Assembly: GCA_046563655.1 (NCBI GenBank)
Contig: CM102286.1
Location: 2,852,001-2,916,000 of the forward strand
Length of the DNA stretch: 64,000 bases
DNA from: Yuukianura sp. NJ FZ-2021
Taxonomy: Eukaryota
Direction: 5' to 3'
Within the stretch, counting starts at the first letter, position 1. Each line of letters begins with the position of its first letter. Under the pieces are notes generated by a model that was not told the origin of the DNA, did no database searches, and worked only from the letters and a program-made list of their open reading frames with translations. Of the stretch, positions 6,056-44,940 are shown in pieces. The translations under genes were made by a program, and so were the position numbers.

Positions 6056-7069
6056 CTTGCGAAATTTTTTCTTCTAAAGCAAGCCTAATATAAGAAATCA
6101 TAATTTCTAAGTCCGAAAAAATATAATTGGCAAATAGCAATTACAGAATCTGTAATTGTAGTTAACGATAAGTAAAGTGACCTTGGACCTAATAAGCACT
6201 GTACAGTATTTTTGTCATATGCCGTTTTCCTTCTAATATGGATTGTGTAGTAGTACACTTCAAGTATGGACAGCGCGTGCCCTCTGCACCGCTACAATTT
6301 CAACCCTGTCCTAAAAATACAGTGATTCGCAATTAATTTAATTAAAGTGGTTAAATTAACATCGTTAATTATTATAGTTAGATTAATTAGTTATTTTTTT
6401 TAAATGAAGAAAACTTTAGGTTTGCAGTTTGCGCAGATTACTGCGTGCCGTTTCCAATCCAAATTACACGAAACAGTAGAATTGAAAAAGAAAACCAACA
6501 CGTACATTCCACTAACACTATCGTCAGTTTTTACAAATATTCCAATTTATGAAAGCTAATTTTTTTGATGACTTTCACCTGCACTTTGGAAAGTGTAATA
6601 AAAATTTACGTTTTCAAGCGACTGTAAAAAGAAATTGAAGGTTTACCGTGTTCAAGGTTATTCTGTCATTCAAAATTTACTGGCAACCCTCATTCATAAA
6701 CACGAAACTAGACCAATTTTCATATTTTTTACATTCACAAATAGGAAATGCCGTGCATTTAGATTGTCGACTAAACACAAATCGATTAATTTGAACTACA
6801 TAGGAACTTATTACCACCTCCACTTATTTTTTTTTCAAAACGTAACGTTTAAACATAACTTCTACAACACTCACCTCCTCTACTATCAATCACATTTTAA
6901 TAATTTAGTTTTCAGCTACGCTTCAAAAATTGGCAGCAAAACCGGCAAAAATTTGCAGTTCTGGCAAAATCCTATTTTAGCACGTTGGCGCCCTGCAGTC
7001 TAGCGTTGAAAAGGAAATTGATCCCCGTGCATCCAAAACATACTCAATAGAAGTTGAATAGCTCTATTT

Positions 7070-11074: not shown

Positions 11075-12610
11075 TTAACATATGTCGTGAGGATGACCGA
11101 AGAGAATAGTTGGTTGGTGGTCATTGGAGTCATCATTTCGGGGGTAGTCTTGAAGTAACTTTTCGTAGCCATCAGTGAGGAATGGTGCTCCGCTCGATGG
11201 TAGTCGTTCTGAGAAGAGGCCGATGGGCGACGGCATTCGGGGTATTTCGACTGTGTCGGCTGAGGTGGACTGGGTAGGTTCGGTTTGGGTTGCCGGGGAA
11301 GCAGTGTCTTCGGGCGTCGGAGAATCGGTCTGTGGCATCTCGGGTATCTCTTGTTGTCCCCACTGGGTGTCCTTCAGAATTCTTTCGGTTACCAGAGCAA
11401 TAGGAGTCGACTGCATTCTGTATTGTCCATGGGTTTCCAGTGACCTTTCGTCTTTAGGCTTCACCCGCAAGTTCTCCTTTGTTGGATGACCATGGTAGTC
11501 ATAGGCATATCCTCGGGCTGAGCATCCGGGCATGTTGGTGTCTCCTGGGGTCGTCACTACCTTTGGCTGAGGGGCTGGAGGCGGCACGTCATATCCCTCA
11601 TGGCTCGGAGGATTCCAAGTTTTAGGCGGAGTTCGGCTTTTCGAAGCGTGGTGAACATCTAGGTTGAATGTCGGTTGGAACTTGTCAACTTCGGCTGCTC
11701 TGAATACATACTCTCTGTCTGCAACGTCCATGTCAGTGTTTCCAGCTGACTCAGCAAGCTCCAAAAGATTACGAAGTTGGGACATCGTTTGTGGTGAATG
11801 GAGACTGATCTGTCTTTTGATACCAGGGTGGAGGCCCCGCAGTGTATATTTGACCCGTAGGGTGTCACTCATCTCTGGGTCTACTCGGTCAGCTATATTC
11901 TGCATGTGGACGAAGTAACCCAAGGAAGTTTCTCCTTGTCTTTGTTCCCTTGACCAGAGTAGCCACTCATTGTCCTGGGCAGAGGGTGAGCTTGTGCCGT
12001 GTTTCTTGAACTGTGTCGCAAGTTCTTCCCAAGTCCATTGACCTTTGCCTTGTCGCTGGCGTTCATTGGAAGCGGCACTGTACCAACGGCTAGCAAAGCC
12101 AGACAAATATAATGGGAAGACAATGAGCTTATGGTGCTCATCCCATCCGTTACAGACGCTGATGTGATCGAAGCTTTCCAAATAAGCTTTTGGATCTGAG
12201 CCACGTCGCCCGGTAAATTGTTGTGGATGAATTGGGATTCTAACCGGTGGCAAATCAACGTTCATCGGAAAAGGATCATTGTCGCTTCCGTTTCCCGACG
12301 AATGTAAATAATCGTCATCTTCATCCTGTGGCTGGGGTTTCTGCGCCTGGCTCACAGTATGTTCTGTGGTCGTGTTAGATTTGGGCAGAAAGATTAGGCC
12401 AGAATTTCTGGAACCACTAGCGAGGGCCGGTCGGCTGTTTCTTGTGGCAAGAGTCGGTGTAACGGATGTTTGAGAGGGTTTTGATGGTTGAACCTCAAGA
12501 GTTCCATCGCCACTCCCTTCAGTTTCGTTTGAAGACGATTCTTCAGACTCAGTATAGTGTTGTCCGCTTTTTGCAAAAGCAGCGTTACGCTGTTGTGTTA
12601 GCTTATCCAT
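11075..12610 (-). CDS. gag: Retrotransposon Gag (capsid domain, Ty3/Gypsy type)
   Basis: Uninterrupted ORF of about 510 aa from ATG 12610; capsid motif FTGRRGSDPKAYLESFD...NGWD...LYLSGFASRWY...TWEELATQF...REQRQGET...LRGL; no CCHC knuckle. Confidence 0.9.
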   Translation of the reverse strand: MDKLTQQRNAAFAKSGQHYTESEESSSNETEGSGDGTLEVQPSKPSQTSVTPTLATRNSRPALASGSRNSGLIFLPKSNTTTEHTVSQAQKPQPQDEDDDYLHSSGNGSDNDPFPMNVDLPPVRIPIHPQQFTGRRGSDPKAYLESFDHISVCNGWDEHHKLIVFPLYLSGFASRWYSAASNERQRQGKGQWTWEELATQFKKHGTSSPSAQDNEWLLWSREQRQGETSLGYFVHMQNIADRVDPEMSDTLRVKYTLRGLHPGIKRQISLHSPQTMSQLRNLLELAESAGNTDMDVADREYVFRAAEVDKFQPTFNLDVHHASKSRTPPKTWNPPSHEGYDVPPPAPQPKVVTTPGDTNMPGCSARGYAYDYHGHPTKENLRVKPKDERSLETHGQYRMQSTPIALVTERILKDTQWGQQEIPEMPQTDSPTPEDTASPATQTEPTQSTSADTVEIPRMPSPIGLFSERLPSSGAPFLTDGYEKLLQDYPRNDDSNDHQPTILFGHPHDIC

Positions 12611-13155
12611 GCTGACAACAGCTGCAACAGACAACAATTCTCAGATTAATCGTTTATTAAACTCCTAGCTAGTAAATCCCGCAGAAAGATGAAGAATCAG
12701 AGTAGAAAGAGAACAGTCTAGGATAGATGGCCTTAAGTAGCCTTTAGTTGTAGTCCGGATATCAGATTACGCTACTTCGTAATTTCGGAATTCGGAAAGA
12801 GCTTACTGATTCGCTCTAGGTTGTCGACGTTGGAGGTTGTTCGGAGTAAAGCATACTATTTGTATTACTAAAATAACACACTCATTCGAGTCTCATTAAA
12901 GCATACCTTAAATTTACTACATTCAAACAACAGTCATTCAGAGTAACATTCAACAGTCTGGGCCCAGTATTCAAGAAGAAACATTTTTACGAAGCATTCA
13001 AAATTTATAACTTAACATTCCGCAATCAAAACAATCAAAATCAAAACAGTCAAAATCATAATAGTCAGTCAGTATCGATACAGTCAAACACAAACTGTCA
13101 ACGAACAACACCGTGAACGAATCTGTAAGTACAGGACAGTGAGACCTTGGGCTCA

Positions 13156-19508: not shown

Positions 19509-20959
19509 TTTTAGTCTTCTGGAGACGCATGTCTACGACATGCTGAAGAAGACTATTGATACGACTTTGTCCGTCCGTCTGTCTGTCCGTAACGTTTTTT
19601 AGGACCCTTTGCGATCAAATATTACATCCATTATTGACGGGGTGTCCTGCATCGCCCAAGTGTTTTCATTAGGTCTACATTGCACTTAAAGCCGTACATT
19701 AACAACGCAGAATTGGGCGGCTACTTTACGTACCCGCAGTATCGTGGCTCCGCAAAACTGTTTTGGTTTCGATTGCACTCAAGGTATTTATAAACAACGG
19801 AGTTTTGATCTGGTCATTTTCTTGCAGTATGTTTAGTTACGTTGTTAAATTAAGACTGATTAGAGGGTAGAAAATGCGGCTTAAATTCGTAACATGTAAA
19901 CAGTGAATGACAAGGTTCGAATTTTCAAATTTTCCAACATATACCATTTGTAATTTTCCAACATATACCATTTGTAATTTTCCAACATATACCATTTGTA
20001 ATTTTCCAACATATACCATTTGTAATTTTCCAACATATACCATTTGTAATTTTCCAACATATACCATTTGTAATTTTCCAACATATACCATTTGTAATTT
20101 TCCAACATATACCATTTGTAATTTTCCAACATATACCATTTGTAATTTTCCAACATATACCATTTGTAATTTTCCAACATATACCATTTGTAATTTTCCA
20201 ACATATACCATTTGTAATTTTCCAACATATACCATTTGTAATTTTCCAACATATACCATTTGTAATTTTCCAACATATACCATTTGTAATTTTCCAACAT
20301 ATACCATTTGTAATTTTCCTACATATACCATTTGTAATTTTCCAACATATACCATTTGTAATTTTCCAACATATACCATTTGTAATTTTCCAACATATAC
20401 CATTTGTAATTTTCCAACATATACCATTTGTAATTTTCCAACATATACCATTTGTAATTTTCCAACATATACCATTTGTAATTTTCCAACATATACCATT
20501 TGTAATTTTCCAACATATACCATTTGTAATTTTCCAACATATACCATTTGTAATTTTCCAACATATACCATTTGTAATTTTCCAACATATACCATTTGTA
20601 ATTTTCCAACATATACCATTTGTAATTTTCCAACATATACCATTTGTAATTTTCCAACATATACCATTTGTAATTTTCCAACATATACCATTTGTAATTT
20701 TCCAACATATACCATTTGTAATTTTCCAACATATACCATTTGTAATTTTCCAACATATACCATTTGTAATTTTCCAACATATACCATTTGTAATTTTCCA
20801 ACATATACCATTTGTAATTTTCCAACATAGAACATCAATTCTATGAAAACGGTTTCTCAGTTCGTCCACAGTTTTCCGGTAGGCCGGTCTCAATGTCGTA
20901 TCAATTGTCAACTCCCTCCAGAAGACCTATGCTCAACCCTTGAGCATTGCCCTACCTTG
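19509..20959 (+). mobile_element. Non-autonomous Helentron (HINE/DINE-1-like) element with central tandem array
   Basis: 5' T-run plus subTIR GTCTTCTGGAG with nearby partial inverted copy, (GTCY)n microsatellite at ~19569-19590, 3' subTIR CTCCAGAAGAC (20916-20926), hairpin ATGCTCAA-ccc-TTGAGCAT and end CCTTG|TTT. Confidence 0.8.
19928..20829. repeat. 24-bp minisatellite, about 37.6 copies
   Basis: Unit AATTTTCCAACATATACCATTTGT; a single substitution seen at 20320. Confidence 0.98.
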
Positions 20960-25234: not shown

Positions 25235-27846
25235 TTAAGGCACATGATCAGCATAAAGGTTCCTTTTCGGAAAGCTCGGAAACCAATTATTTCTTGATCG
25301 TGTTCTGAGGCGCGACTGGTCGAAACTTCTGAGTTCCAACTGGACAGAATCTGGAATATTGTGTTCCGCGTGGAAAGATTCTAAGATCAGTCACTTCATC
25401 AACGAACTTTGCCGAATATCGGTATAGAAGGTAGTCGATCTGCTCCTCTAGAGATTTAGGTGACAAAATTGTTAAAATATTGCCAGTAAGTTTAACAATG
25501 GTTTGTACAAGAAGACTTACGATCTAAAGCCCAATCTGGAACAACTTTGTCAGCCCGATGCTCAAGGGCCTCCTCGTCATAATCCGCAAGTAAAGTGATG
25601 TCGTAACAAGTTAGCTTGTTCTCCTTGTTTTCTTTAACTTCTTGATGCACTGGAGCCTTAGGTGTAGGCGGAAGCAGAAATAGACCATCCGGTGTCCGTA
25701 TGTCCGACATAGGCATCTCTTCGTCTTCATGTCCATCATCATTCAAAATCATACCGCTCAAATCTTGAACGACTGAGCTGAGCAAACGAGCATCATTTTC
25801 AGACTCCTTGACGACACTTTTGGAGCTTGATGGCACGACATCAACTGTATTAGTGAAAGTAGTCCGTTCTTTCTTGACGACGACGGGTACAGGCTCCGCC
25901 TTCTTTTGAACTGACGGTAAATTGACAGTAATCTCAGCCTTGGGAACAGGAACAGTAGCAGTTGAACTGGTGGTTTTCACTGGAACAACATAAGTTGCAT
26001 CCAGTACATCGTTGGCATTGAAGGTTAAGTTGTTGACAGTTGGAACTGGAACTGCCACGGCGGGAGCTACAGGTTCCGGTTCGGGAGTTGGAGCTTTCAC
26101 AACTGGCGGTGGTACTGGTGATTTGATCTTCTTTGTGACGTTTTTAGCTTTCTTTGACGCATCGTTACTCAGCTTAACACTGTCACCTCGCTCTTTCAGT
26201 TTCTTCTTTACTGGTTTCTTGGAATCCGCATCCATAAAGTTAAATTTTGGAGCTACAGTTACAGTTGGCTTAGCACGAACCGGAGAGTCAACATCAGTGT
26301 CGGGTGACCTCATGCGTTTCCTTAGTACATTATTCATCTTGAGTTTGGCTCTGGTAACCCGCGATTCATCTAAAACGAAAGTAAACACTTTCAAGTCTAT
26401 ATTGTCATTGTCACCTAACGGTCTAAAATTACCATCGTAGAGATACATAAAAATATCAGTTACATTTACCTTTGAGAGTTGCAACTCGTAGTGGCGTTGT
26501 TGGGTTGAATCCGGGAGTCATTACTCGGGTGGCCTTAACCTTTTTCACTTTACGACCACCTTTGTAGACAAAAGTAAGGTTAGGTTAGGCTAAAAGTAAT
26601 CGATATTCGATAAGCTAACAATTTAAGCAAAAATAAAATAAACTCACTTTTTGCTGCCTTGACCATCATTGGACTATTTTTGAATACATCCTCCCTCTCA
26701 TCCTTCTTGTTGGTAGCCTTCTCAAGGAGAGCTTCCAGCTCCAGTGTGTTTTTCTGTTTTCATAAAAAGAAAGTAAGAAATTAAACGGTTTTCGTTTTAG
26801 TCACTTTGTAAGTTCGTACTGTTTGTAAGCTTGGCTTAAGCGCCAAGCAGTGTGAAGTCTGGTCTTACCTTATGAACTTCCATCATCTCATTGCGGGATG
26901 CAGCAGAAGAACATACGTCAGAGTACTCAGTCAGGAACATTCTTAAGTTTTCTCCGTCTCGGTTTTTTCGGCCGGTTCGGCCTGCCTTAGCCTTGGTTTC
27001 ACGCCCTCCTGTTTTGGCTGTCGGAATAGGAACAGGATCAGTATCAGCTGTTTGCATTACTCTCCCACTCGGTCCTTGTTCTTGGGATTCTGCTCTAACA
27101 TTTGGGTTTGGCTTTATCGTTGGCTCTGGCTCGTCAATCGCTGGTTTCGACGCGGGTTTAGGCTTCACAGGCGCCGGTTTATTAAACAGTTCGCCGGTTT
27201 TAGTTGGAGCCGATGATCCAGTTGGCTTTTGCTGTGGTAAAGTAAATTTAGATGAAGGTTCCGTTTGTGCTGGGACGTGAGCAGGTGAAAAGGCTGGTTT
27301 AGTTGTAGCTTCCTTTGGCAATACTTTTGCAGCAGCGGAGTAGCCCAAATTAGTTGACGAAGATGATGATCCTAAACCTTTTGACACAGGTTTAGAGAGC
27401 GGTGCTGGTACATTCGCTTTTGATGAAGATCCTGCAGTAGCAAGGTTAGAAAACGATCCGGACCCGGCTTTCCTTGCTTTGGATAAGGACCCCTCTTTCA
27501 CCACCTTATTGGTACCCAGAGTACCTGCTGCAGGCAAATTAGTAGACGATCCCCCTCCTCCCGCGCCGATTTTCAGTTTAGACGAGGGGCCCTTTTCGGA
27601 CAGACACGGAGATGATACTGCACTGGCTATTTGCGGTAGCCTTGGAGCAGCTATTTTGAAGCCGGTAGGTGTCCCTGTCGGTGGTGGTAACTTTGATTTG
27701 GATGTATTAGTATGATGCTTGGCCTTAGCCGCTGGACGGCCTCGCTCTCGCTCGGTTTGTTGCCGTCTCTCGGTCTGTTGACCCCGCTCATTCTGACTCT
27801 GGTTGGATGAATCCTGAGCTCGTGACTGTGACCTCGTAACAGGCAT
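25235..27846 (-). CDS. Multi-exon low-complexity basic protein with INCENP IN-box-like C-terminus
   Basis: Exons approx. 27846-26869, 26753-26648, 26569-26470, ~26414-25521 and ~25448-25235, with GT-AG borders. C-terminal YDITLLADYDEEALEHRADKVVPDWA...IF...FRKR resembles the Aurora-B-binding box. The gene is well supported; the identity is tentative. Confidence 0.6.
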
Positions 27847-28493
27847 CCTTAAGAAATAAAGCACATAATAATTTTAACCTAAATACATCTAAAATGGAGC
27901 CATTTTACTGTATTTAGTTTATAATTTTGCGAATCAGTCAATCAATCACCATCACGAACTAAATAAAAGATTGCTGATTACCCGTCACGATAGCTCCCAC
28001 GGCCAAAATATGATCCTCCAAGATTCCGGATTCGGATGACAAGACAGACAGACGACAGCGACAACAAGAAGATGAAGAACAAATAAAAAATGAACGATCA
28101 CATAAGAAATTGGTATTTCCGTGAAGACAGGCAAAGCAACAGGCAATTGGGATTGACTTGAGAGGGAAAAAACTGAACCGACAAAGGCTTAGTTCAACTA
28201 AAAGTTACTCTGCGGAATACAAACTATTTACCACACTTATCAGAGCTGGGCATATTTAAATTTTTCAAAATTTTTTGTTTCAAATTTTTTTGAAACGAAA
28301 CAATGTTAAAGCTTCACTTCTTTGAAACTAATGTTTGAAAACATTAAATGCATTTTTAATTGTAGTAATCGGATTCTAAAAATAACTTTTTATTTTAATG
28401 CCGTTCAATACACTGCTTCAATTGCAAATGGACCCCGGAATTAAATTGTCCCATAAATTTTGCAATTTATTTGTAAAAATTTGGTCAGTTTTT

Positions 28494-29213: not shown

Positions 29214-30548
29214 GATTTTCAACTACTGTACTAAATTTTGAACTTTTGGTCAAACTGCGTTTAAAGCCTATGACTATTCTAACGTGCCAACAGTAGTCAC
29301 GACTAATTGAAAACCTTCATTTTTATTTCATTATTTAGTTTCAGATTTTAATCAAAAGGTTCAACTTTTTTGTAAGAAGATTAGATTAAATTTAGCCATT
29401 TGGAATTGTGTCAGAGTAAAGTACAAAGTATTTGAAACCTTTTTATCAAACACTTATATTTTGCGAAACTTTCAGCTCTTTCCAGTTTTAAGGTTTATAC
29501 TCAAATGTTAATACAAGCAATTATTATTGAATGATATTTAAATTTTACTTAAAATATTAATGCAAACCAAGGTAAATAGATGCAAACAACTTTCATTTTT
29601 AAACTGAAGTTGTTTGTAAATGTGGAAGTTATTGTTTACGCTAAATTCTTACTATCTAGTGTATAGAATTGGCACTTCCGGCAAAATTTTTAACGTAGAG
29701 TTTTTAACGTTGCGTGTGTTGGAATAACAATACTGTAAGCACAGTGTTTTAATTTCTAGTAAAGAGAAAGGCAAAAAAAAATTGGCGAATCGGCGTCACT
29801 TTCACTTCGGTGGAATTTGTACTATGGAAGTTAATCATGCAAAATCTTGAGTAAAACAAAACGTTCCAGATTTTTTTTTAAATTGAAAATTGTATGTAAA
29901 CACCTTTTTTTTGCATTTAATCGTAAAAAATCAAGCATGGAATTACAGAAAAACGCGTGACACACTCCATCAACAGATATATTTTGTGGCAAAGTTTGTT
30001 TTTCTTTTTTTCTTAGCGGACTTGTCCTTGTAGGTCAAGAAAATGAAAATGTGGGCATGTACAAATACAATCCAGCTTTAAGAATGAAAAGACCGAGCAT
30101 CGCTACTATAGCTTGGTTCCCTTTCAATACAGATCTGACCCATTTCTGGTTTGTTGAGACTTCAATTTACGTATAGCAATCATCCAGCAGGCTTTTATAT
30201 TCGCTCGGAAGACAAAAAAGTTGTTGTTGAAAAGCAGGTTTTACTATGGGGGATTACTAAAGTTTAGGGTAAGACATGAAGACACGAAAACATTATGACA
30301 AGTCGAAGATTATACAAGTTTATTTAAAGATAAACAAGTCATACAGTTTAACTTTTCGCTTGATCTGAAGTTTGATGCAGTGTCAACGTGTAGGCATTTA
30401 GTAGTACAATGTGCAATACGATACAAGAGTACATTAATCCCAAAAGACTATAGAAGCTATAAAACTTTCAGAGTCAAGTTGTAGACGCTAATGCATTTTC
30501 ATCTAGAATTCAGTTCAAAGGTACAAGAAACAACTTAAAAGTGACACG

Positions 30549-32491
30549 ATGTCTTCCAACTCAGCAACCTCTTCCGAAGACGACCAAAAAGTAAGAATAA
30601 AAAAAAATAGTTACAAATTTAACGTATTTTTGTACGACTCATTTTGATTTCATTTTCCAAAACTTTTTGTTTTGTATTCAGAGCGACTTTCTTTCAAACG
30701 CGGAATTTGGCGGAAGGTTACCGCTTGTAACCAAACTACGAATAAGAAATTTCATGTGCTTCAGGTCCCTTGACCTGAAGTCCTTGAATCAGACTTCGAT
30801 TCCCTACGAAGGGGGAGGAGGTGACGGCAAAACGGCGTTTGCCATTTCTATGTTACTAGGGCTCGGCTACGACATTTTGCTGGAGAATGAAGACAGGAAG
30901 ACGCTTTGTGGTTTCGAAATTTCAAGTAAGGAAGTTTTTTTTTAATCAAAATACAATTTTGTTCAAGAATTGGAAAAACTAAATTTGAAAATACATTGTT
31001 TTTAACTTTAGATGTTGTACGTAATGGAGAACCTACTTCTGTCTTAGAAACAACAATTTCCCTACAATGTTCCGAACATTTGATGTCAATGTTCGGGCCT
31101 TACATGACAATTCAGCGTATAATTTTTAAAGGGCAACCCCTCAGCAAAAGCCCAATTCAATTGGCAGCTTCGGATTCGGAGGGAAATTGCTTCGAACCGA
31201 AGAAACGAGTAACGGAAGCTGAACTTCGGATGACCTTGGACATCCTGGGAATCTCTCCAAAGTGGTTTCGTTTAATGCTTTTAGATGAAACCAATCTTAC
31301 TCACCTTATTGATCATCCGTCCGAATGGTTAGTTAAAGTTTAGATAAAGTTTGACCTTTGACATGAAATTTCAATACATTATTGAAAATTTAATTGAGTT
31401 TTACTTACAGGTATGAACTGTATGAACAAACTTTTTTGTTCACAAAAAGAAAGCTCCTCAAAGACTTTCTAGCTTTCGAAAGTCACATTGAGAAAATGGA
31501 AGGTGACTTGCATTGGAGATTGATAGTAAGACCTTGGAAAACACAATGTCACTTTGTAAAACAATTTTGTTTTTTTGGAAATTTTTAAAATATGACCGTT
31601 TTTTTATCGTAGGTTGACAATCAATTGAATACTCAACTGGAACAACCGTACCTGGTGGATTCTCCAATAACCATAAGAGATCGTGAAAACGATATACGAG
31701 CAATTACCAAAATTAGAAATTCTATGAGAGCCATCGGAACTGAAATTGACGTAATGCTTTCCATATTGAAATAATTTAACAATGATTTTAATTCAAAATT
31801 TTCAAAAAATTTAAAAATTAAAGGGTGTTCTAGAGAAGTGTTAATTTCAGTTTTTTTTAAAGTCATGCCGCAGTGTTCACGAAATTTGCCGGAATGAATT
31901 GGAGGAGCTGCATATTACATTCCAGTACAGGATCTCCAAGATCTTCAGAAAATTTCTGAACAGTCAGCAATTAAATGTAAGTGCTCTTCAGAAATTAAAA
32001 AAAAACACAAACACATGTAAATCATTGCTTTTCATTTTCGAATCTTCCAGGGCGATATAGTAATAGATCTCAGCCTTAAGAAAATGGCAATTTGGATCTC
32101 CAATTCGAGTAAAGAGAGTTCACCGAGGACAATGTAAGTTTTCTGAATTTACAAAAATTCGCTGACCTTTGATTTCAATTTTTCATTTGCTTGTTTGGAA
32201 TTCAACAGAGACGAAACGCAATTGATGTGGGATAAATTGCCAATTTCAAGAAAGAAATTGGCCATGACGGGTCTCTATCTGGCTCTGTGGGAAGTCAACG
32301 AGAGCTGTCCAATCTTCATTGTTGATTCTTCCAGTCAAAGTGCAACGGAATTTAAACTTCCACCCCCCGTTTTCAAAATCTTTCGTGAATTGATGCAAGA
32401 AAAAAGTGTGAATACAAGGACAAAACATCAGCAGTTCTTTTATACTACAAAGGCCTCCTCAGAAGTTCCACTTATTGAGCTCAGCGATTAA
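30549..32491 (+). CDS. SMC5/6-like head-only protein, 444 aa, 8 exons
   Basis: Exons 30549-30590, 30682-30925, 31012-31327, 31411-31525, 31613-31750, 31863-31976, 32051-32133 and 32209-32491 splice in frame (1335 nt). N-terminal KLRIRNFMCF...GGGGDGKT...LLGLG; C-terminal LYLALWEVNESCPIFIVD...QQFFYTTK. Confidence 0.75.
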
Positions 32492-32832
32492 CTAATCTTG
32501 TCAATACCAAATAGACTTTCATTAAGTTAAGACAAATACAATTACAAATTTGATATTTTTGTACGCCGTAGACCAACGTTTACGCTAAACTATGCTACTT
32601 AATTAAGTACAAAGTTTTATGAATTGTTGTGATCAGATGCAATAAATTAGTTTGTAGATGCACACAAAATAGCGTATTTGACAGGCTGACAATACTTTCA
32701 GAGACATAGATTGAGTTTCAGTTTTACTTTTTATAGTCTATAAATTATATGTTATTGTAGTAATTTGGTAAATTTTATTCAATTGATGCGATGGAAGAAA
32801 AAAGTCACGTGAATCGGTTGTTACAACGTAAA

Positions 32833-39323: not shown

Positions 39324-40088
39324 TCACAATTTGTTGAAAAATTGAACAACAAAGAAAAGTAGTGCAGAAAAAGTAAGAATTGAAGAAGCAAAAAGTGATG
39401 TTCCACCGCATACGCAAAATCCTTCTTTGATTCTGCGCTGAACGTATGCTTCGACATTTGACTCTGCAGAAGGATCCGAATTTACTTCTTTTTCCAACGC
39501 TTTCGAAAGTCCTTTGAGTGTACATTCTTCCCGCGTCGTTTTGGTGATACACTTAGCCTTATTGGCGCATCGATTGTCATATTTATTGAAATCTGGTCCA
39601 ACTGTAATGGAGTTTTTTGATTTATGCGCCAATTGCAAGAGTTCACTATGTGAACAGTAAGATCCAGGGGCAGCCAGGCACGAGTCTCCTTCCAATTTAA
39701 ACGTAACATTAATTCCTTGTCGTTCTACTTCGCCGCAGTCGCAGTAGCCCTTTGAAGTACACTGGAAATTCTTATATCCGTTGCAATAAAAACCTGGATA
39801 ATTGGCAATCGGCTCCAATATGTCCTTGATTTCATGAAATATTCGTTGAGCATAGTCACTCGACTGGATTCCGGTTTTGAGCAATTCAGCCTTTTCCAAA
39901 ATTATGTTTTCAGCATCTCTGAACTGTTGTTCTGCTGCTAGGTCGCAAGATTCCTTGTGACCCAGAGTCAGTTTTTTTAAACTCGCTTCTGTGAGGAATT
40001 TTAACTCTTGTTTCACTTGGGAATCATCATTGGCAACGCAAAAGCCAAGCAGTGCCACCAAAACTGCAGAAACCAAAATGAGCCTCAT
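39324..40088 (-). CDS. Cys-rich GPI-type surface protein, paralog A
   Basis: Signal peptide, 12 mature Cys in a family pattern, hydrophobic C-terminal tail. Confidence 0.88.
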   Translation of the reverse strand: MRLILVSAVLVALLGFCVANDDSQVKQELKFLTEASLKKLTLGHKESCDLAAEQQFRDAENIILEKAELLKTGIQSSDYAQRIFHEIKDILEPIANYPGFYCNGYKNFQCTSKGYCDCGEVERQGINVTFKLEGDSCLAAPGSYCSHSELLQLAHKSKNSITVGPDFNKYDNRCANKAKCITKTTREECTLKGLSKALEKEVNSDPSAESNVEAYVQRRIKEGFCVCGGTSLFASSILTFSALLFFVVQFFNKL

Positions 40089-40520
40089 TTTTTTGCCAGA
40101 ATAAAACTATTTCGATTTTTGATTTTTTTGAAACTGCTCAAACACTGTTTCTGGAGTGACCATCCAGGTTTACTTTGTATGCGTTTTAATGCTAACCTGG
40201 AACGGGAAAACGGAAACAAATTGTGGTGTTCAAATTCTTCAAAAAATAACTGAACAAACCCTGCGGCTTCATATTTCCTGTTTCGCAAATTCTCAAGACA
40301 TCGCCTTGGTTGGTTTAGCAAAAAAAAAAGTGCTGCTCATTTTAAAATTCAAAATCAAATTTTATTGGGTTTTGTCCAATACAGTTTTTGTTTCCCCAAG
40401 CGTAAAAACTCAAAGCTTAACATTAACATCAAAGTATTCAAAATATGAAAACAGGTCGTACCTTACACCACTTGAGTCAATTAACTTGAAGTTAATTGGC
40501 TAACATGAGTTCTAATAAAG

Positions 40521-41276
40521 CTAATAAACTGCAGATTTCATAAGAACGAACAAGGCCATGATTAAGGTGAAAACAGGAAATGCCAAAGTTGAAAAAGATC
40601 CACTGCAGAGGCAAACTCCTTCTCTAAATTTCTGAAAAGCGAAATCATGTAAGTTTTCAACTTGACCTTCTTCATCGAACAATCTCTTGGCTTCGGCTTG
40701 CATTGCTTCCAATGTACAAACTTCACCATTACTCTTGACAACACAAGAAGCATTTCCAGCACATCGAAAATCATTCTGCGCCACAAGAGCCATTAGAGTT
40801 CCGAGTGGATTGTCTTGTGATTGGCTCATGAGTTCCGCCGGAATACAAATTGATCCAGAAGCAAGGAGACATGCGTTGCCGTCTTTTTGGAAACTCATTT
40901 TGAATCCATAGGTTTCATCTGCTCCTGCGCAGTCGCAAACTCCTTCCGCAGTGCATTGGAGATTGTGGTTGCCATTGCAGAAGGTACCATTAATGCTATA
41001 CATGGTCTGACTAATTGTAGCGAATTTCGTTTCAAATTCTTCCAGAGTAAAAGTTTCCATCCGAATTTTGTTGAACGAATTCAAAAGTTGTGCGCTATGT
41101 TTTCCTTTTTCCTGTTCATTTTCATAGTGGCAGGGACTTCCGTAAGTCAAATTGCTCCTTTCATTCATAGATGACAGAAGCAGCTTCGCGACGGTCAGTA
41201 TTTCATTCGTGTCTAAGCTAGAAAGCACTTCGGTTGCAAACATCATGGACAACAGAACTCCGGCCTTCCAGTACAT
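40521..41276 (-). CDS. Cys-rich GPI-type surface protein, paralog B
   Basis: Same Cys pattern (FCNG..NLQC...CDC...CL.A.GS.C...RCA..A.C...CT...C.C), signal peptide and hydrophobic tail. Confidence 0.88.
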   Translation of the reverse strand: MYWKAGVLLSMMFATEVLSSLDTNEILTVAKLLLSSMNERSNLTYGSPCHYENEQEKGKHSAQLLNSFNKIRMETFTLEEFETKFATISQTMYSINGTFCNGNHNLQCTAEGVCDCAGADETYGFKMSFQKDGNACLLASGSICIPAELMSQSQDNPLGTLMALVAQNDFRCAGNASCVVKSNGEVCTLEAMQAEAKRLFDEEGQVENLHDFAFQKFREGVCLCSGSFSTLAFPVFTLIMALFVLMKSAVY

Positions 41277-42162
41277 AGTGGTGGTTTGGAAAGAACTTTA
41301 AAAAAAATTAAAAGAAAAAATGTTCGATTAATTAACTAATTGCGGATACAAAGGTGTCACAAAAAATTTGTTGAAAAATACAAAAGGAAATTTGACATAT
41401 TTTTTTCTTATTTCTCCTAGAAATCTAGTCGGTGATTTGTTTTTAATTTTTTTTTAAAACGTTACATTGTTCAATACATATTTTAATCCTTAACTTACTA
41501 GGTTCGGTATGATTCAAATGGTTTGCCTTTCACTTTAAAGAAAGTTTTGTTTAGTTATAGCTTCACTTTGGTTTTGAAAATTTTACTTCCGCTGAACGGT
41601 GTGAAATATTTTTACGTTTCTTCTATGCTTTGGTTTAGCTTAGAGAATGTATTTAATGTTACCTGAAGTAAGTCTTACCTAACTTCTATATACAAGTACA
41701 TTAAGTGGTTACCTCGAAAGCCACGCAAAAAAACGTATAAGCAGAAAGTCCCTCAACAGAGTACAGCAGTAGCACAATTAGCGCCGGGTTGAGGAAAAGC
41801 TTTCTTTTTAAATAAGATGAACCAAAAGGAATTTGTTTGACTAATGAACAAACCAGAAAAGCCGCGCTTCACAATTTTTTTTACAGTGTCAATTTTTTCG
41901 TTCACGTAACAATTGCAGTACGACTAGTAGCAACACTAGCATAACAAGAAAGCATAAATTTGAATCACATGTCAAAACTGAAAAGTTCAAATCGAGATTG
42001 GTATTTATTACTATTCTTGCTTTCTCAAAACAAATCTTTTAAATATTCGGCAACACTGCAATCAAATCCTGATCAACTACTGTAATGCTAACAATTTCTC
42101 AAATAATTTTACAACAAACGAAAAAAAGAACTTAAGCAGAGTGCAGAATCAAAAATTGATGT

Positions 42163-42843
42163 TCACGCGCACACGCAGAATTGTTCTCTGAGTCTGCGCC
42201 TTAGAAATGCTTCAGCATTCGGCAGTTGAGCAGGATTGGCTGCTAATTCTTTCTGAAGCGCTGTAACTATTCCATCAGATGTACATTCTTCACGGCTACT
42301 TTTGATGACACAGGAAGCCTTATTTGCACATCGAGTATCAAATTTGTCGGCTCGAAATGCTCCACCCAGTGCTTGGTGACCAACTTTTAAAAGTGTAGCA
42401 TGTGTACATACTGATCCAGGTGAAAGAAGACATTTGTCGCCTTCGGCTTGGTACTTTATCCCAGGTATTCCTCCAAACGGTTTGTCTGTCTCACAGTCGC
42501 AGTAGCCCTTAGAAGTGCATTGTAAATTACTGAAAATGTTGCAAAACTGACTTCGTGTTTTTCCAACAGAGTCAAATAATTTCCGCAATTCACGAAATGT
42601 ACGCTGGTTCTCAGTCTTTGATTGTGTACCGGTCTTAAGCTTTTCAGATTTTTTGGCAATTTTTTCTTCAATCTTTGCTGCTTGTTGTTCTGCACGAAAG
42701 TTACATCGTTGGTTATGACCCAGAGTGGCTTTCGTTTCAATAATGTCCAGAAAGAATTGAAGTTGTTGCAAATAAGAAGTGTCATTTGCAACACAGAAGC
42801 CTACCCATGATACCAGAATTACAGAAACCAAACCAAATTTCAT
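42163..42843 (-). CDS. Cys-rich protein, paralog A' (no hydrophobic tail)
   Basis: Closest to A (GFCVAND, TLGH, QCTSKGYCDC, RCANKA); stops right after CVCA. Confidence 0.85.
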   Translation of the reverse strand: MKFGLVSVILVSWVGFCVANDTSYLQQLQFFLDIIETKATLGHNQRCNFRAEQQAAKIEEKIAKKSEKLKTGTQSKTENQRTFRELRKLFDSVGKTRSQFCNIFSNLQCTSKGYCDCETDKPFGGIPGIKYQAEGDKCLLSPGSVCTHATLLKVGHQALGGAFRADKFDTRCANKASCVIKSSREECTSDGIVTALQKELAANPAQLPNAEAFLRRRLREQFCVCA

Positions 42844-43355
42844 TTTTTGTAATTGAATCAAAATGTTTCAATTCTAGTGTCTTCAGGTTATTAAAAACTT
42901 TTCAAATGTTTTCTTTTTAAATAACCTCCCGGTTTACTGCCCAATGCTTTAAATGCTGTTAGAGCGGGAAAAGGGAAGTGAATTGCGGTGTTCATATCCT
43001 GCGAAAGTAAGTGAACAATCCATGTGACTCCGGGCTTCCTGTTTTACAAATTTTCAAAATTCTGACGAGGAAGGGCGTATCCTTCCCAAATTTGAACAAA
43101 ATACAACTAGAGTTTACAAGTACATTTAAATTTGGTTATAACTTAAACACAAACGTTAATAATTTCAATACATTCCGAAATTAATTTTTATTAAAAATTA
43201 AAATCGCTAATGATCTCACAATTTTCGATACAAGCAAAGCATGCTTTCCTAAATACTCAAAGTTTAGCGTAACACTAACGACTTTGGAATAACAAAATAT
43301 ACTATAATGTATACACTTGAAGTAAAGTTAATTAACTAACATAAACTCCATTAAG

Positions 43356-44108
43356 TTAGTAAACTAAACATTTGATAAAAACCAACAAGGCCATGATTAA
43401 AGTAAAAACTGGAGACGCAAAATTTGAAAAAGTTCCTTTACAAACACAAACGCCCTCTTTGGCTTTCTGGAAAAAGAATTCAACTGGATTTTCAACTGGA
43501 CCTTCCTCAGCCTCCAGTCTTCTAAATTCCGTTTGCATTGATTCCAGCGTACAGAGTCCACGGTTACTCTTGACAATACAAACAGCATTCCCAGCACATC
43601 GATACTCATGCTGTACAGGTTTAGTTGTAAATGGATTGTTTAGTCTTGATTTTTCCATGAGTTCTCCAGGAGCACAAAGTGATCCAGGAGCAATGAGACA
43701 TACGTTGCCATCCCTTTGAAAACTCATTTTGAATCCATAGGATTCATCTGCTCCTGCGCAGGCGCAAACTTCGTCAGAATTGCATTGCAGATTTTGGTAG
43801 CCATTGCAGAAAACAGTAGGAATGGAGGCTATGGACTGAATGATTGAGACCAATTTGTTTTTGAATTGTTCCAAACTGAACGACGCGTCCATCCGAATTG
43901 TGCTCATCAAATTCAAAAGTTGCTTTTCATATTTTTGTTTCTCTTGTTCACTGGCGTAGTTGCATTTGGAACCGTAAGTCAAAACGTTCTTTTCCATTAG
44001 GGATTCTAGCAGCGGCTTTACCTCGGCTATTAGTTGATTGGGATCTAGACTAGAAGCGACATCGGTTGCAAATATCAAGGAGACCAAAATCCACGTCTTC
44101 CAAGTCAT
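43356..44108 (-). CDS. Cys-rich GPI-type surface protein, paralog B'
   Basis: Closest to B (CAGADE.YGFKMSFQ.DGN, RCAGNA, PVFTLIMAL). Confidence 0.88.
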   Translation of the reverse strand: MTWKTWILVSLIFATDVASSLDPNQLIAEVKPLLESLMEKNVLTYGSKCNYASEQEKQKYEKQLLNLMSTIRMDASFSLEQFKNKLVSIIQSIASIPTVFCNGYQNLQCNSDEVCACAGADESYGFKMSFQRDGNVCLIAPGSLCAPGELMEKSRLNNPFTTKPVQHEYRCAGNAVCIVKSNRGLCTLESMQTEFRRLEAEEGPVENPVEFFFQKAKEGVCVCKGTFSNFASPVFTLIMALLVFIKCLVY

Positions 44109-44940
44109 AGCGGTAGCTTGAATTTTTTTTTTTTTTTTTGAAAAATCTGTAAAAGAAAAACAAAACTAAGTTTTAGACAGATGAAGACGAACTAACTAAA
44201 TACAGAGCGTGCCACAAAAAGTAGAAAAAGTTAGTTTGAAAAATTCGTTTTCGACGAAATCCGTTTTTAAACTTTTTGGGCTTTTAGTGGTAACGTATTT
44301 TTCCTTTTCAAAATTCTTTCAAATAGAGTCTTACTGCAGAATTTGAATTCTTCAGGTTCCACTTTTTGTAAAAACTGAAAATAAAGATTAGTTTTGTTTG
44401 ACTTTGGCTTCACTTAGGTTCTGACAAATTTATTTCCAATGTTGAAAACTATTAAACAAATTCTTATCCTTCCGGAATGGTTTGGTTTAAACCAATTTTC
44501 AAAAAATCTTCTTTTTCTGAACTTCTTGCACGAAGGTTGTCAAAATATTAGTAATTTGTATCTGTCTGTACGTCGTTACCGCCAAGGTCAAAGAAAAGTG
44601 ATTTAACACAAACTGTAACCAATACTCCTCCGCCTGTTCATTAGCAAATCACTTTTCGTTGTTTATGGGTTGGTTTTGCACTGTTTAACTTATAACTTTG
44701 GAGGTTAACGAAACAAAATGAAAAGTAGCTACCTAAGCCTGTCCTGGAGCTAATGCTGATGAATAATTTAAGCTTTCCTGAGCTCTAAATGACAATAAAA
44801 TAGCTCACCTACTATGCAAAAGACTTTGGATTTAGTAAAGGTCACGTACAAAAGGTCACCTAAGAATGAGTTTCAGATGCACAATGTGGTTCGGCGTCCA
44901 ATGAAAACTTGTGTGGTAAACAAAAACTGTCACTGATGAT

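Follow-up and report, generated by a model that had tools for sequence, protein, structure and literature searches.

SMC5/6 is the least understood of the eukaryotic SMC complexes, and the regulators known for it are non-SMC proteins, namely Nse5/6, loaders of the SLF/SIMC type and viral antagonists. For condensin, a regulator that itself resembles an SMC protein has been described in C. elegans. In the account given by Chao et al. (2017, PLoS Genet, PMC5373644), this protein, SMCL-1, has an intact Walker A motif, an imperfect signature, a Walker B motif without its glutamate, no hinge and no predicted coiled coil, and is found in only some Caenorhabditis species. It resembles the condensin subunit SMC-4, and it binds and inhibits condensin, a conclusion for which the same source gives biochemical support and from which it proposes a ‘poison head’ or regulator; the pattern used there to describe such heads is GG-x(20)-hhhhD (PMC5373644). 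Here, we analyze a gene at positions 30549-32491 of a 64,000-nucleotide stretch of the Yuukianura sp. NJ FZ-2021 assembly GCA_046563655.1 (contig CM102286.1, positions 2,852,001 to 2,916,000 of the forward strand), hereafter called the window. Its 444-residue product is likely a head-only descendant of SMC6. The fuller reading, which takes the locus for a functional gene of the animal and its product for a non-catalytic partner of SMC5/6, we hold to be probable on balance, with less assurance than the identity of the protein.

A predicted spliced gene under constraint

The eight exons of the predicted splice model (Table 1) join on the plus strand into a frame of 1335 nt, whose sole stop codon is the terminal one. 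The seven introns are between 74 and 112 nt long and all run from GT to AG, and the nearest in-frame stop 5' of the ATG lies at 30504. The same model had been put forward in an earlier reading of the bare sequence (the original prediction) and it stands, with canonical splice sites, intron positions that agree with those of the relatives described below, and all the motifs quoted in that reading present at the residues of Table 1. Splicing to an alternative in-frame acceptor at 31851 would lengthen the protein by four residues, to 448. The 444-residue form, which uses the acceptor at 31863, is favored because the equivalent exon is 114 nt long in all four intact relatives and because a second sequence type of this locus (see below) carries a 1-nt deletion at 31851. 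Within intron 5, a short A-rich stretch (31785-31822) recurs in a number of long contigs of run X4 that are otherwise unrelated and is therefore, to judge by these matches, a dispersed low-complexity repeat.

The gene has relatives. With exon 2 as query, an exhaustive HMMER search returned seven short proteins of 34-61% identity from metagenome and run assemblies, none of them named, and a scan of metagenome contigs returned four loci from a single metagenome (L001-L004), in which gene models were built by coordinates. L001 carries two tandem paralogs, L001a and L001b, and L002 has an incomplete copy where its contig ends. The intact relatives are thus four (L003, L001a, L001b and L004), each with six to eight exons whose positions and phases of introns are common with the window gene; L003, 52% identical to it, has all seven introns at the same positions and in the same phases. 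In the alignment of the five members, pairwise identity ranges from 30 to 52% over the whole length with few gaps, and the proteins measure 406-433 residues counted from the head exon on. Exon lengths are conserved as well, those of 115 and 114 nt in all members and those of 138, 316 and 83 nt in some.

Other searches for kin were null. No second copy of the gene was found within the 64-kb window, and its neighbors are not syntenic with those of the metagenome loci. Word-indexed searches with exon 2 and P0005 against longer proteins, and with exon 8 against proteins comparable in length, gave nothing, nor did any annotated or named protein in the collections searched match the family. Two further ideas about the gene were set aside. 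A mobile-element context was rejected, as neither inverted nor long direct repeats were found around the gene; a viral origin, or a viral decoy, was rejected as the viral contig collection, searched with both the N-lobe and the C-lobe alignments, held no relative. The original prediction had connected the gene with restriction of viral DNA, a link left without support by the same search.

The catalytic motifs have been lost throughout the family. Walker A is canonical (GxxxxGK[ST]) in three of the five members (the window gene, L003 and L001a) and shortened in L001b and L004, which read ..QGVGKS and ..TGTGKS, respectively. The LSGG signature, or even a GG at its place, occurs in none of the five, and the same is true of a histidine at the H-loop place. 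At the Q-loop place, in a register that is itself inferred, four members read L-L-D and L004 reads V-L-D, with a glutamine in none. The hhhhD of Walker B is kept in all five (IFIVD, LFLVD, FFAVD, IFFMD and ILAVD), each time with a serine or an alanine instead of the catalytic glutamate. The absence of a signature and of the Walker B glutamate, first noticed in the window protein, accordingly holds for every member. Because it is common to all five, this loss is old and shared, and not the decay of one copy. The residues on which ATP hydrolysis and the canonical engagement of heads depend are thus missing. What the original prediction had overlooked was the multi-member family itself, the two members without a canonical P-loop, and the published hinge-less regulator SMCL-1 (PMC5373644).

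Evidence of constraint comes from a second sequence type, which was found in DNA contigs from the same sample and from a second organism. Over 2271 bases of one 26-kb contig, it departs from the window sequence at 151 substituted positions and in 26 gaps, or by ~6.6%. Among the 40 listed of the 305 single-base differences to this ~6.6% divergent copy, 27 are coding, of which 17 are synonymous and 10 non-synonymous, when random change would be expected to yield about one synonymous difference in four. Of the 44 insertions and deletions (indels), 12 are listed; ten of these are intronic or upstream, and the remaining two form a +1/-1 pair, six bases apart, in exon 3. Between family members, the proportion of non-synonymous differences (pN) is 0.31-0.50 and that of synonymous differences (pS) 0.73-0.82, which is saturated, so that a ratio of non-synonymous to synonymous rates (dN/dS) among them is not estimable. 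Judged by its sequence, the SMC6-like gene of 444 codons is real and constrained. It is not a chance reading frame, because relatives share its intron positions and phases, because synonymous changes are in excess, and because an AATAAA follows at 32641. The claim that the gene is maintained is borne out in the same way, by the synonymous excess of 17 in 27 in that listed sample and by a pN lying under a saturated pS. The family as a whole would then be an old, selectively maintained, previously unnamed group of several members, none of which has a hinge.

Sequences of differing similarity to the locus also occur in the sample itself. In runs X1, X2, X4 and X5, the region 30400-32700 is represented, besides its exact sequence, by contigs from the same sample that are 95-99%, 90-95% and less than 90% alike, with piece counts in X1 of 29, 25, 30 and 23 for the exact, 95-99%, 90-95% and <90% classes, respectively. 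The ~6-7% divergent type is also present in the run of the second organism. These divergent contigs may stem from paralogs, from more than one haplotype or from the pooling of material in the sample.

Origin of the two lobes and of their linker

The N-terminal lobe derives from SMC6. Already with exon 2 alone as a phmmer query against the PDB, five of the six matches are to SMC6 from yeast and human, and, non-significant as they are (E 0.33-0.79), they coincide precisely with the stretch made up of the first strand, Walker A and the next helix. A profile of eight family sequences raises these matches to significance, with an E of 1.3e-6 for yeast SMC6 and 3.4e-4 for human SMC6. Its 28 PDB matches comprise SMC6 (5), Rad50 (10), GajA (5), RecN (2), PtuA, OLD and another AAA ATPase (1 each, at E 0.015 or weaker) and three unrelated chains; SMC6 ranks ahead of Rad50 and RecN, and none of the 28 is an SMC1-4 protein of condensin or cohesin. 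A wider N-lobe profile, A5, in which five fragment rows were partly misaligned by MAFFT, matches yeast SMC6 at E 1.1e-6, with an alignment that reaches SMC6 residues 82-203. Similarly, when the equivalent part of L001a was modeled with AlphaFold, the top seven Foldseek matches were all Smc5/6 entries (E 4.2e-5, Smc6 residues 82-228).

Less specific methods placed the lobe in the same broad class. The language-model Atlas put the L001a N-lobe in AAA_23, SMC_N, Rad50 and SbcC clusters only, and hhalign aligned the N-terminus with RecN (E 1.4e-4) and RecF (E 0.01). Pfam AAA_23 remained below threshold in the relatives, at best 23.8 bits for a cut-off of 27, with another at 21.1 bits, in both cases over profile positions 1-47. 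Pfam gave nothing relevant for seven single exons of the window gene, and the score of the curated SMC_N and AAA_23 families was not reached; exon 3, alone or as a profile, had no SMC match in the PDB. From the profile and the predicted fold, we conclude that residues ~30-200, some 170 in all, make up the N-lobe of an SMC-type head with SMC6 as its nearest relative. The SMC-like N-terminus claimed in the original prediction is therefore upheld, with the family profile and the L001a model adding that it is SMC6-like.

Between the two lobes lie 122 residues (202-323). The original estimate was of about 100, so that the gap is short, as claimed, and its length is what needed correction. There is no hinge, because only 122 residues separate the lobes, and long coiled-coil arms are likewise absent, again as first proposed. 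Glycine and proline occur twice each in the linker, and both prolines lie near its center, in EQPYLVDSPITIRDR. We infer a helical hairpin with ~45-60 residues per arm that turns at the prolines; of the SMC arm, only the ‘neck’ would then be represented.

The C-terminal part is harder to place. Neither exon 8 nor a five-sequence C-lobe profile matched any PDB entry at E<=10, an Atlas search gave noise only, in the form of helix-turn-helix clusters at 0.78-0.84, and hhalign comparisons with RecN and RecF were non-significant (E 0.72 and 0.46, respectively). For the C-lobe of L001b on its own, AlphaFold gives a poor model, with a predicted local distance difference test (pLDDT) score of 46, and Foldseek found nothing at E<=1e-3 for this model. 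A Foldseek-independent search of 48,161 chains ranked an SMC head C-terminal chain first, a JetC chain fifth and an Smc head thirteenth, with unrelated helical proteins no more than one Z unit away from any of them. The lack of a significant match and the poor isolated model favor a chimera, in which only the N-terminal ~170 residues, to which significant similarity is confined, come from SMC6, and the linker and C-terminal part belong to an unrelated, lineage-specific domain; such a protein would be a chromatin- or DNA-binding factor independent of SMC5/6 and would use its degenerate N-lobe as a scaffold.

The arrangement of the C-terminal part speaks against this chimera. In the five-member alignment, a G-D/N-hydrophobic strand is followed by an (I/L)W strand, a conserved W and a GL(Y/F)(L/F)A(L/F)W helix, then by (C)P, hhh, D and S/A and, ~35 residues on, by Q(Q)F, a hydrophobic run and T/S. 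In the window protein, IFIVD follows the SR of LPISRK after a spacing of 20 residues. The order of strands, helix, hhhhD some 20 residues past the signature place and a Q-F-hydrophobic strand ~35 residues later is the one expected, and, read from sequence, it matches the signature, Walker B and H-loop of SMC-type heads. The best hhalign register to RecF, that at E 0.46, lands on the motifs too, with W..TP on the RecF signature, PIFxVD on Walker B and QQF on the next strand. The low-confidence AlphaFold model of L001b has two strands at the equivalent of exon 7, and, among its fold matches, weak as they are, C-terminal chains of SMC heads come first and cover nearly the whole model. Furthermore, the N-lobe of an SMC or Rad50 head is half of a split domain, and such a lobe is not known to be stable on its own, in the absence of the C-terminal half. 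For these reasons, we regard the chimera as unlikely. Homology of the C-terminal part to an SMC C-lobe is plausible, given collinear motifs and weak fold matches that point the right way, and it is not proven; of the SMC-like layout originally proposed for it, the collinear spacing stands, and the profile and fold matches that might have secured it stay weak and non-significant.

Possible action on SMC5/6

If the window protein is a head-only descendant of SMC6, its two lobes would pack into a single head of the ATP-binding cassette (ABC) type. Such a head, its C-terminal lobe having lost the D-loop along with the signature, the Walker B glutamate and the H-loop histidine, would be incapable of ATP hydrolysis, and ATP binding may persist in the window protein and the other members whose P-loop is complete, via their intact Walker A. 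The partners of SMC6 would most likely still be recognized, because the family derives from SMC6 and keeps a linker of neck length. The head could thus occupy the SMC5 head or the Nse4 kleisin, whose N-terminal domain binds the SMC6 neck. Once docked, it might block, cap or retarget SMC5/6 as an unproductive cap or adaptor, by analogy with the action of SMCL-1 on condensin. We offer this regulatory mechanism tentatively, as a possibility that falls short of probable.

Two of the relatives may carry a DNA-binding moiety. Both head paralogs of L001 (2133-3817 and 6423-8085) have C2H2 zinc-finger open reading frames (ORFs) upstream on the same strand, and the ORF at L001:4937-5803 scores 47.1 bits for zf-C2H2_4 and 35.4 bits for zf-C2H2 in Pfam. 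The last zinc-finger ORF before each head ends in a phase-0 GT donor, and the acceptor of the head exon is also in phase 0 (GTAAGT to TAG|GCT at 2133; GTTAGT to TAG|TCC at 6423). This arrangement suggests zinc-finger-head fusion genes, duplicated in tandem. Because of the putative fusion, the fused members may act at specific DNA sites, where they would block, cap or retarget SMC5/6 as proposed for the other heads. Extended to its limit, the argument gives a family of dead, hinge-less SMC6 heads, some fused to zinc fingers, that would dock on SMC5 or Nse4 and switch off, cap or recruit SMC5/6 at chosen sites, that is, a sequence-targeted layer of control of the SMCL-1 kind, evolved independently of the nematode condensin case. 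In this extended form, the proposal is speculative, and we doubt that all of it will hold.

The significance of such a family, if the proposal is true, would be threefold. The SMCL-1 principle, by which a cell controls an SMC motor through a defective copy of the motor's own head, would gain a further example of independent origin; structural studies would have a small ‘mini-head’ made by nature; and the engagement of SMC5/6 heads and kleisin binding would become accessible to genetics. The putative zinc-finger fusions further suggest a route for directing SMC5/6 activity to specific DNA sequences.

A head of this architecture could also work alone. As an autonomous nucleotide switch of the RecF/RecN type, it would bind ATP and self-dimerize on DNA, for example in repair or silencing, with no contact to SMC5/6. 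The head with a short helical arm and no hinge does recall RecF, the N-lobe aligns with the N-termini of RecN and RecF, three members (the window gene, L003 and L001a) have a canonical Walker A, and the putative zinc-finger fusions suggest direct action on DNA. The ATP-sandwich dimerization of ABC heads, however, requires the signature motif, which is absent from all five members, and the P-loop is shortened in two of the five. In addition, the affinity of the N-lobe to SMC6 over Rad50, RecN and RecF points to an SMC6 duplicate that has likely kept SMC6 partners. A self-sufficient switch therefore seems improbable to us, slightly more so than the chimera. Finally, a decaying partial duplicate of SMC6 (a pseudogene), or a set of functionless exon-like ORFs that has been over-interpreted, would explain the lost catalytic motifs and the absence of an annotated protein match in the collections searched, and is scarcely credible given a frame intact over eight exons here and six to eight exons in four relatives of 30-52% identity, an excess of synonymous changes, indels that avoid exons, a pN well under a saturated pS, and a polyadenylation signal.

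Coordinates, surroundings and comparison with known systems

The features of the gene, together with the zinc-finger ORFs of L001, are collected in Table 1.

Table 1. Features of the head-only SMC6-like gene, in window positions, and zinc-finger ORFs of locus L001, in positions of that locus.
Feature	Position	Strand	Remarks
Exon 1	30549-30590	+	ATG, 14 codons; N-terminal tail, poorly conserved; first exon of L003 similarly short
Exon 2	30682-30925	+	First beta-strand, Walker A, helix after Walker A, LGLGYD
KLRIRNFMCF, first beta-strand	30733-30762	+	Residues 32-41, exon 2
GGGGDGKT, Walker A	30811-30834	+	Residues 58-65, exon 2
LGLGYD	30856-30873	+	Exon 2; LGLG is residues 73-76
Exon 3	31012-31327	+	Remainder of head N-lobe
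MLLDETN, Q-loop place	31275-31295	+	Exon 3; no glutamine
Exon 4	31411-31525	+	Start of the 122-residue linker (‘neck’); 115 nt in five of five family members
EGD..WR	31499-31519	+	Exon 4; conserved
Exon 5	31613-31750	+	Mid-linker
EQPYLVDSPITIRDR	31640-31684	+	Exon 5; both linker prolines
Exon 6	31863-31976	+	Return part of linker; 114 nt, same length in four of four relatives
FRKFLNSQQLN	31944-31976	+	End of exon 6; FRKFLNSQQLN|GDIVIDL is residues 313-330 across the exon 6/7 junction
Exon 7	32051-32133	+	First C-lobe strands, GDIVIDL and MAIWI (MAIWI is residues 335-339)
Exon 8, including stop codon	32209-32491	+	Places of signature, Walker B and H-loop
LPISRK, signature place	32237-32254	+	Residues 361-366, exon 8
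GLYLALW helix	32270-32290	+	Exon 8
PIFIVD, Walker-B-like, then SSS	32309-32335	+	Exon 8
LYLALWEVNESCPIFIVDS	Residues 373-391	+	Motif quoted in the original prediction; present
QQFFYTTK, H-loop place	32429-32452	+	Residues 425-432, exon 8
AATAAA, likely polyadenylation signal	32641-32646	+	~150 nt past the stop codon
Zinc-finger ORFs	L001:284-2097 and L001:4657-6355	Same as heads	Upstream of the L001 head paralogs
Further zinc-finger ORF	L001:9256-9834		

The window is eukaryotic DNA of ~35% G+C, in which no tRNA or Rfam match was found, and the neighbors of the gene are typical of an animal: an immunoglobulin-domain protein, a Ras-family GTPase, a ligand-binding domain of the ANF_receptor type and a retrotransposon gag. 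The last is a 521-residue ORF on the minus strand (11075-12640), ~18 kb upstream of the gene, with a Retrotrans_gag match of 24.5 bits (cut-off 24.1), and is a retrotransposon remnant or copy. An array of a 24-nt unit, ~1 kb long (19837-20926), is open in all six frames, one of which encodes an 8-residue repeat, VYVGKLQM. Also on the minus strand, two long, low-complexity ORFs rich in Ser, Pro and Lys (25492-27873; 341 and 345 residues) have no Pfam match; the first ends in ..VPDWA.., which may resemble the C-terminal box of INCENP-type proteins. Four tandem paralogous ORFs of 234-269 residues on the minus strand (39324-44165), again with no Pfam match, begin with what resembles a signal peptide, have numerous conserved cysteines and end in a hydrophobic stretch; they are predicted to constitute a secreted or membrane-anchored family confined to this lineage.

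Among known systems, SMC6 itself (PDB 7tve, 7qcd, 7yqh, 8i4x and 9lwi) shares with the window protein the RNFMC strand, Walker A, the next helix and a collinear N-lobe up to SMC6 residue ~203-228. The two differ in size and in catalytic equipment. SMC6 chains measure 1091-1157 residues, with long arms and a hinge, compared to 444 residues here, and the window protein has neither LSGG nor the Walker B glutamate, the H-loop histidine or the Q-loop glutamine. RecF and RecN, bacterial SMC-like ATPases that are hinge-less or short-armed and were compared in their E. coli copies, resemble it in plan, with a short helical insert but no hinge between the halves of the ABC head, and in their N-termini, which align. 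Unlike the window family, both are active ATPases with a signature and a Walker B; the family is nearer SMC6, and its C-lobe alignment to them is non-significant. Literature searches, judged by the titles and the openings of abstracts that they listed, brought up no paper on a truncated SMC6-like protein or on such a derivative of SMC6.

The closest parallel in design is SMCL-1, which is compared here through its published description. The window gene shares each of the features in that description, from homology to SMC proteins and short length to the states of Walker A, signature and Walker B and the lack of a hinge, and, as described, both are maintained genes; L001b and L004 depart from it in lacking an intact Walker A. 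In other respects, the two differ. The window family is nearest to SMC6, has a linker of 122 residues and includes several paralogs, some without a canonical P-loop and two with putative zinc-finger fusions. Because five of the 28 PDB profile matches are to SMC6 and none is to an SMC protein of condensin or cohesin, the comparison argues for the window family as an invention independent of SMCL-1.

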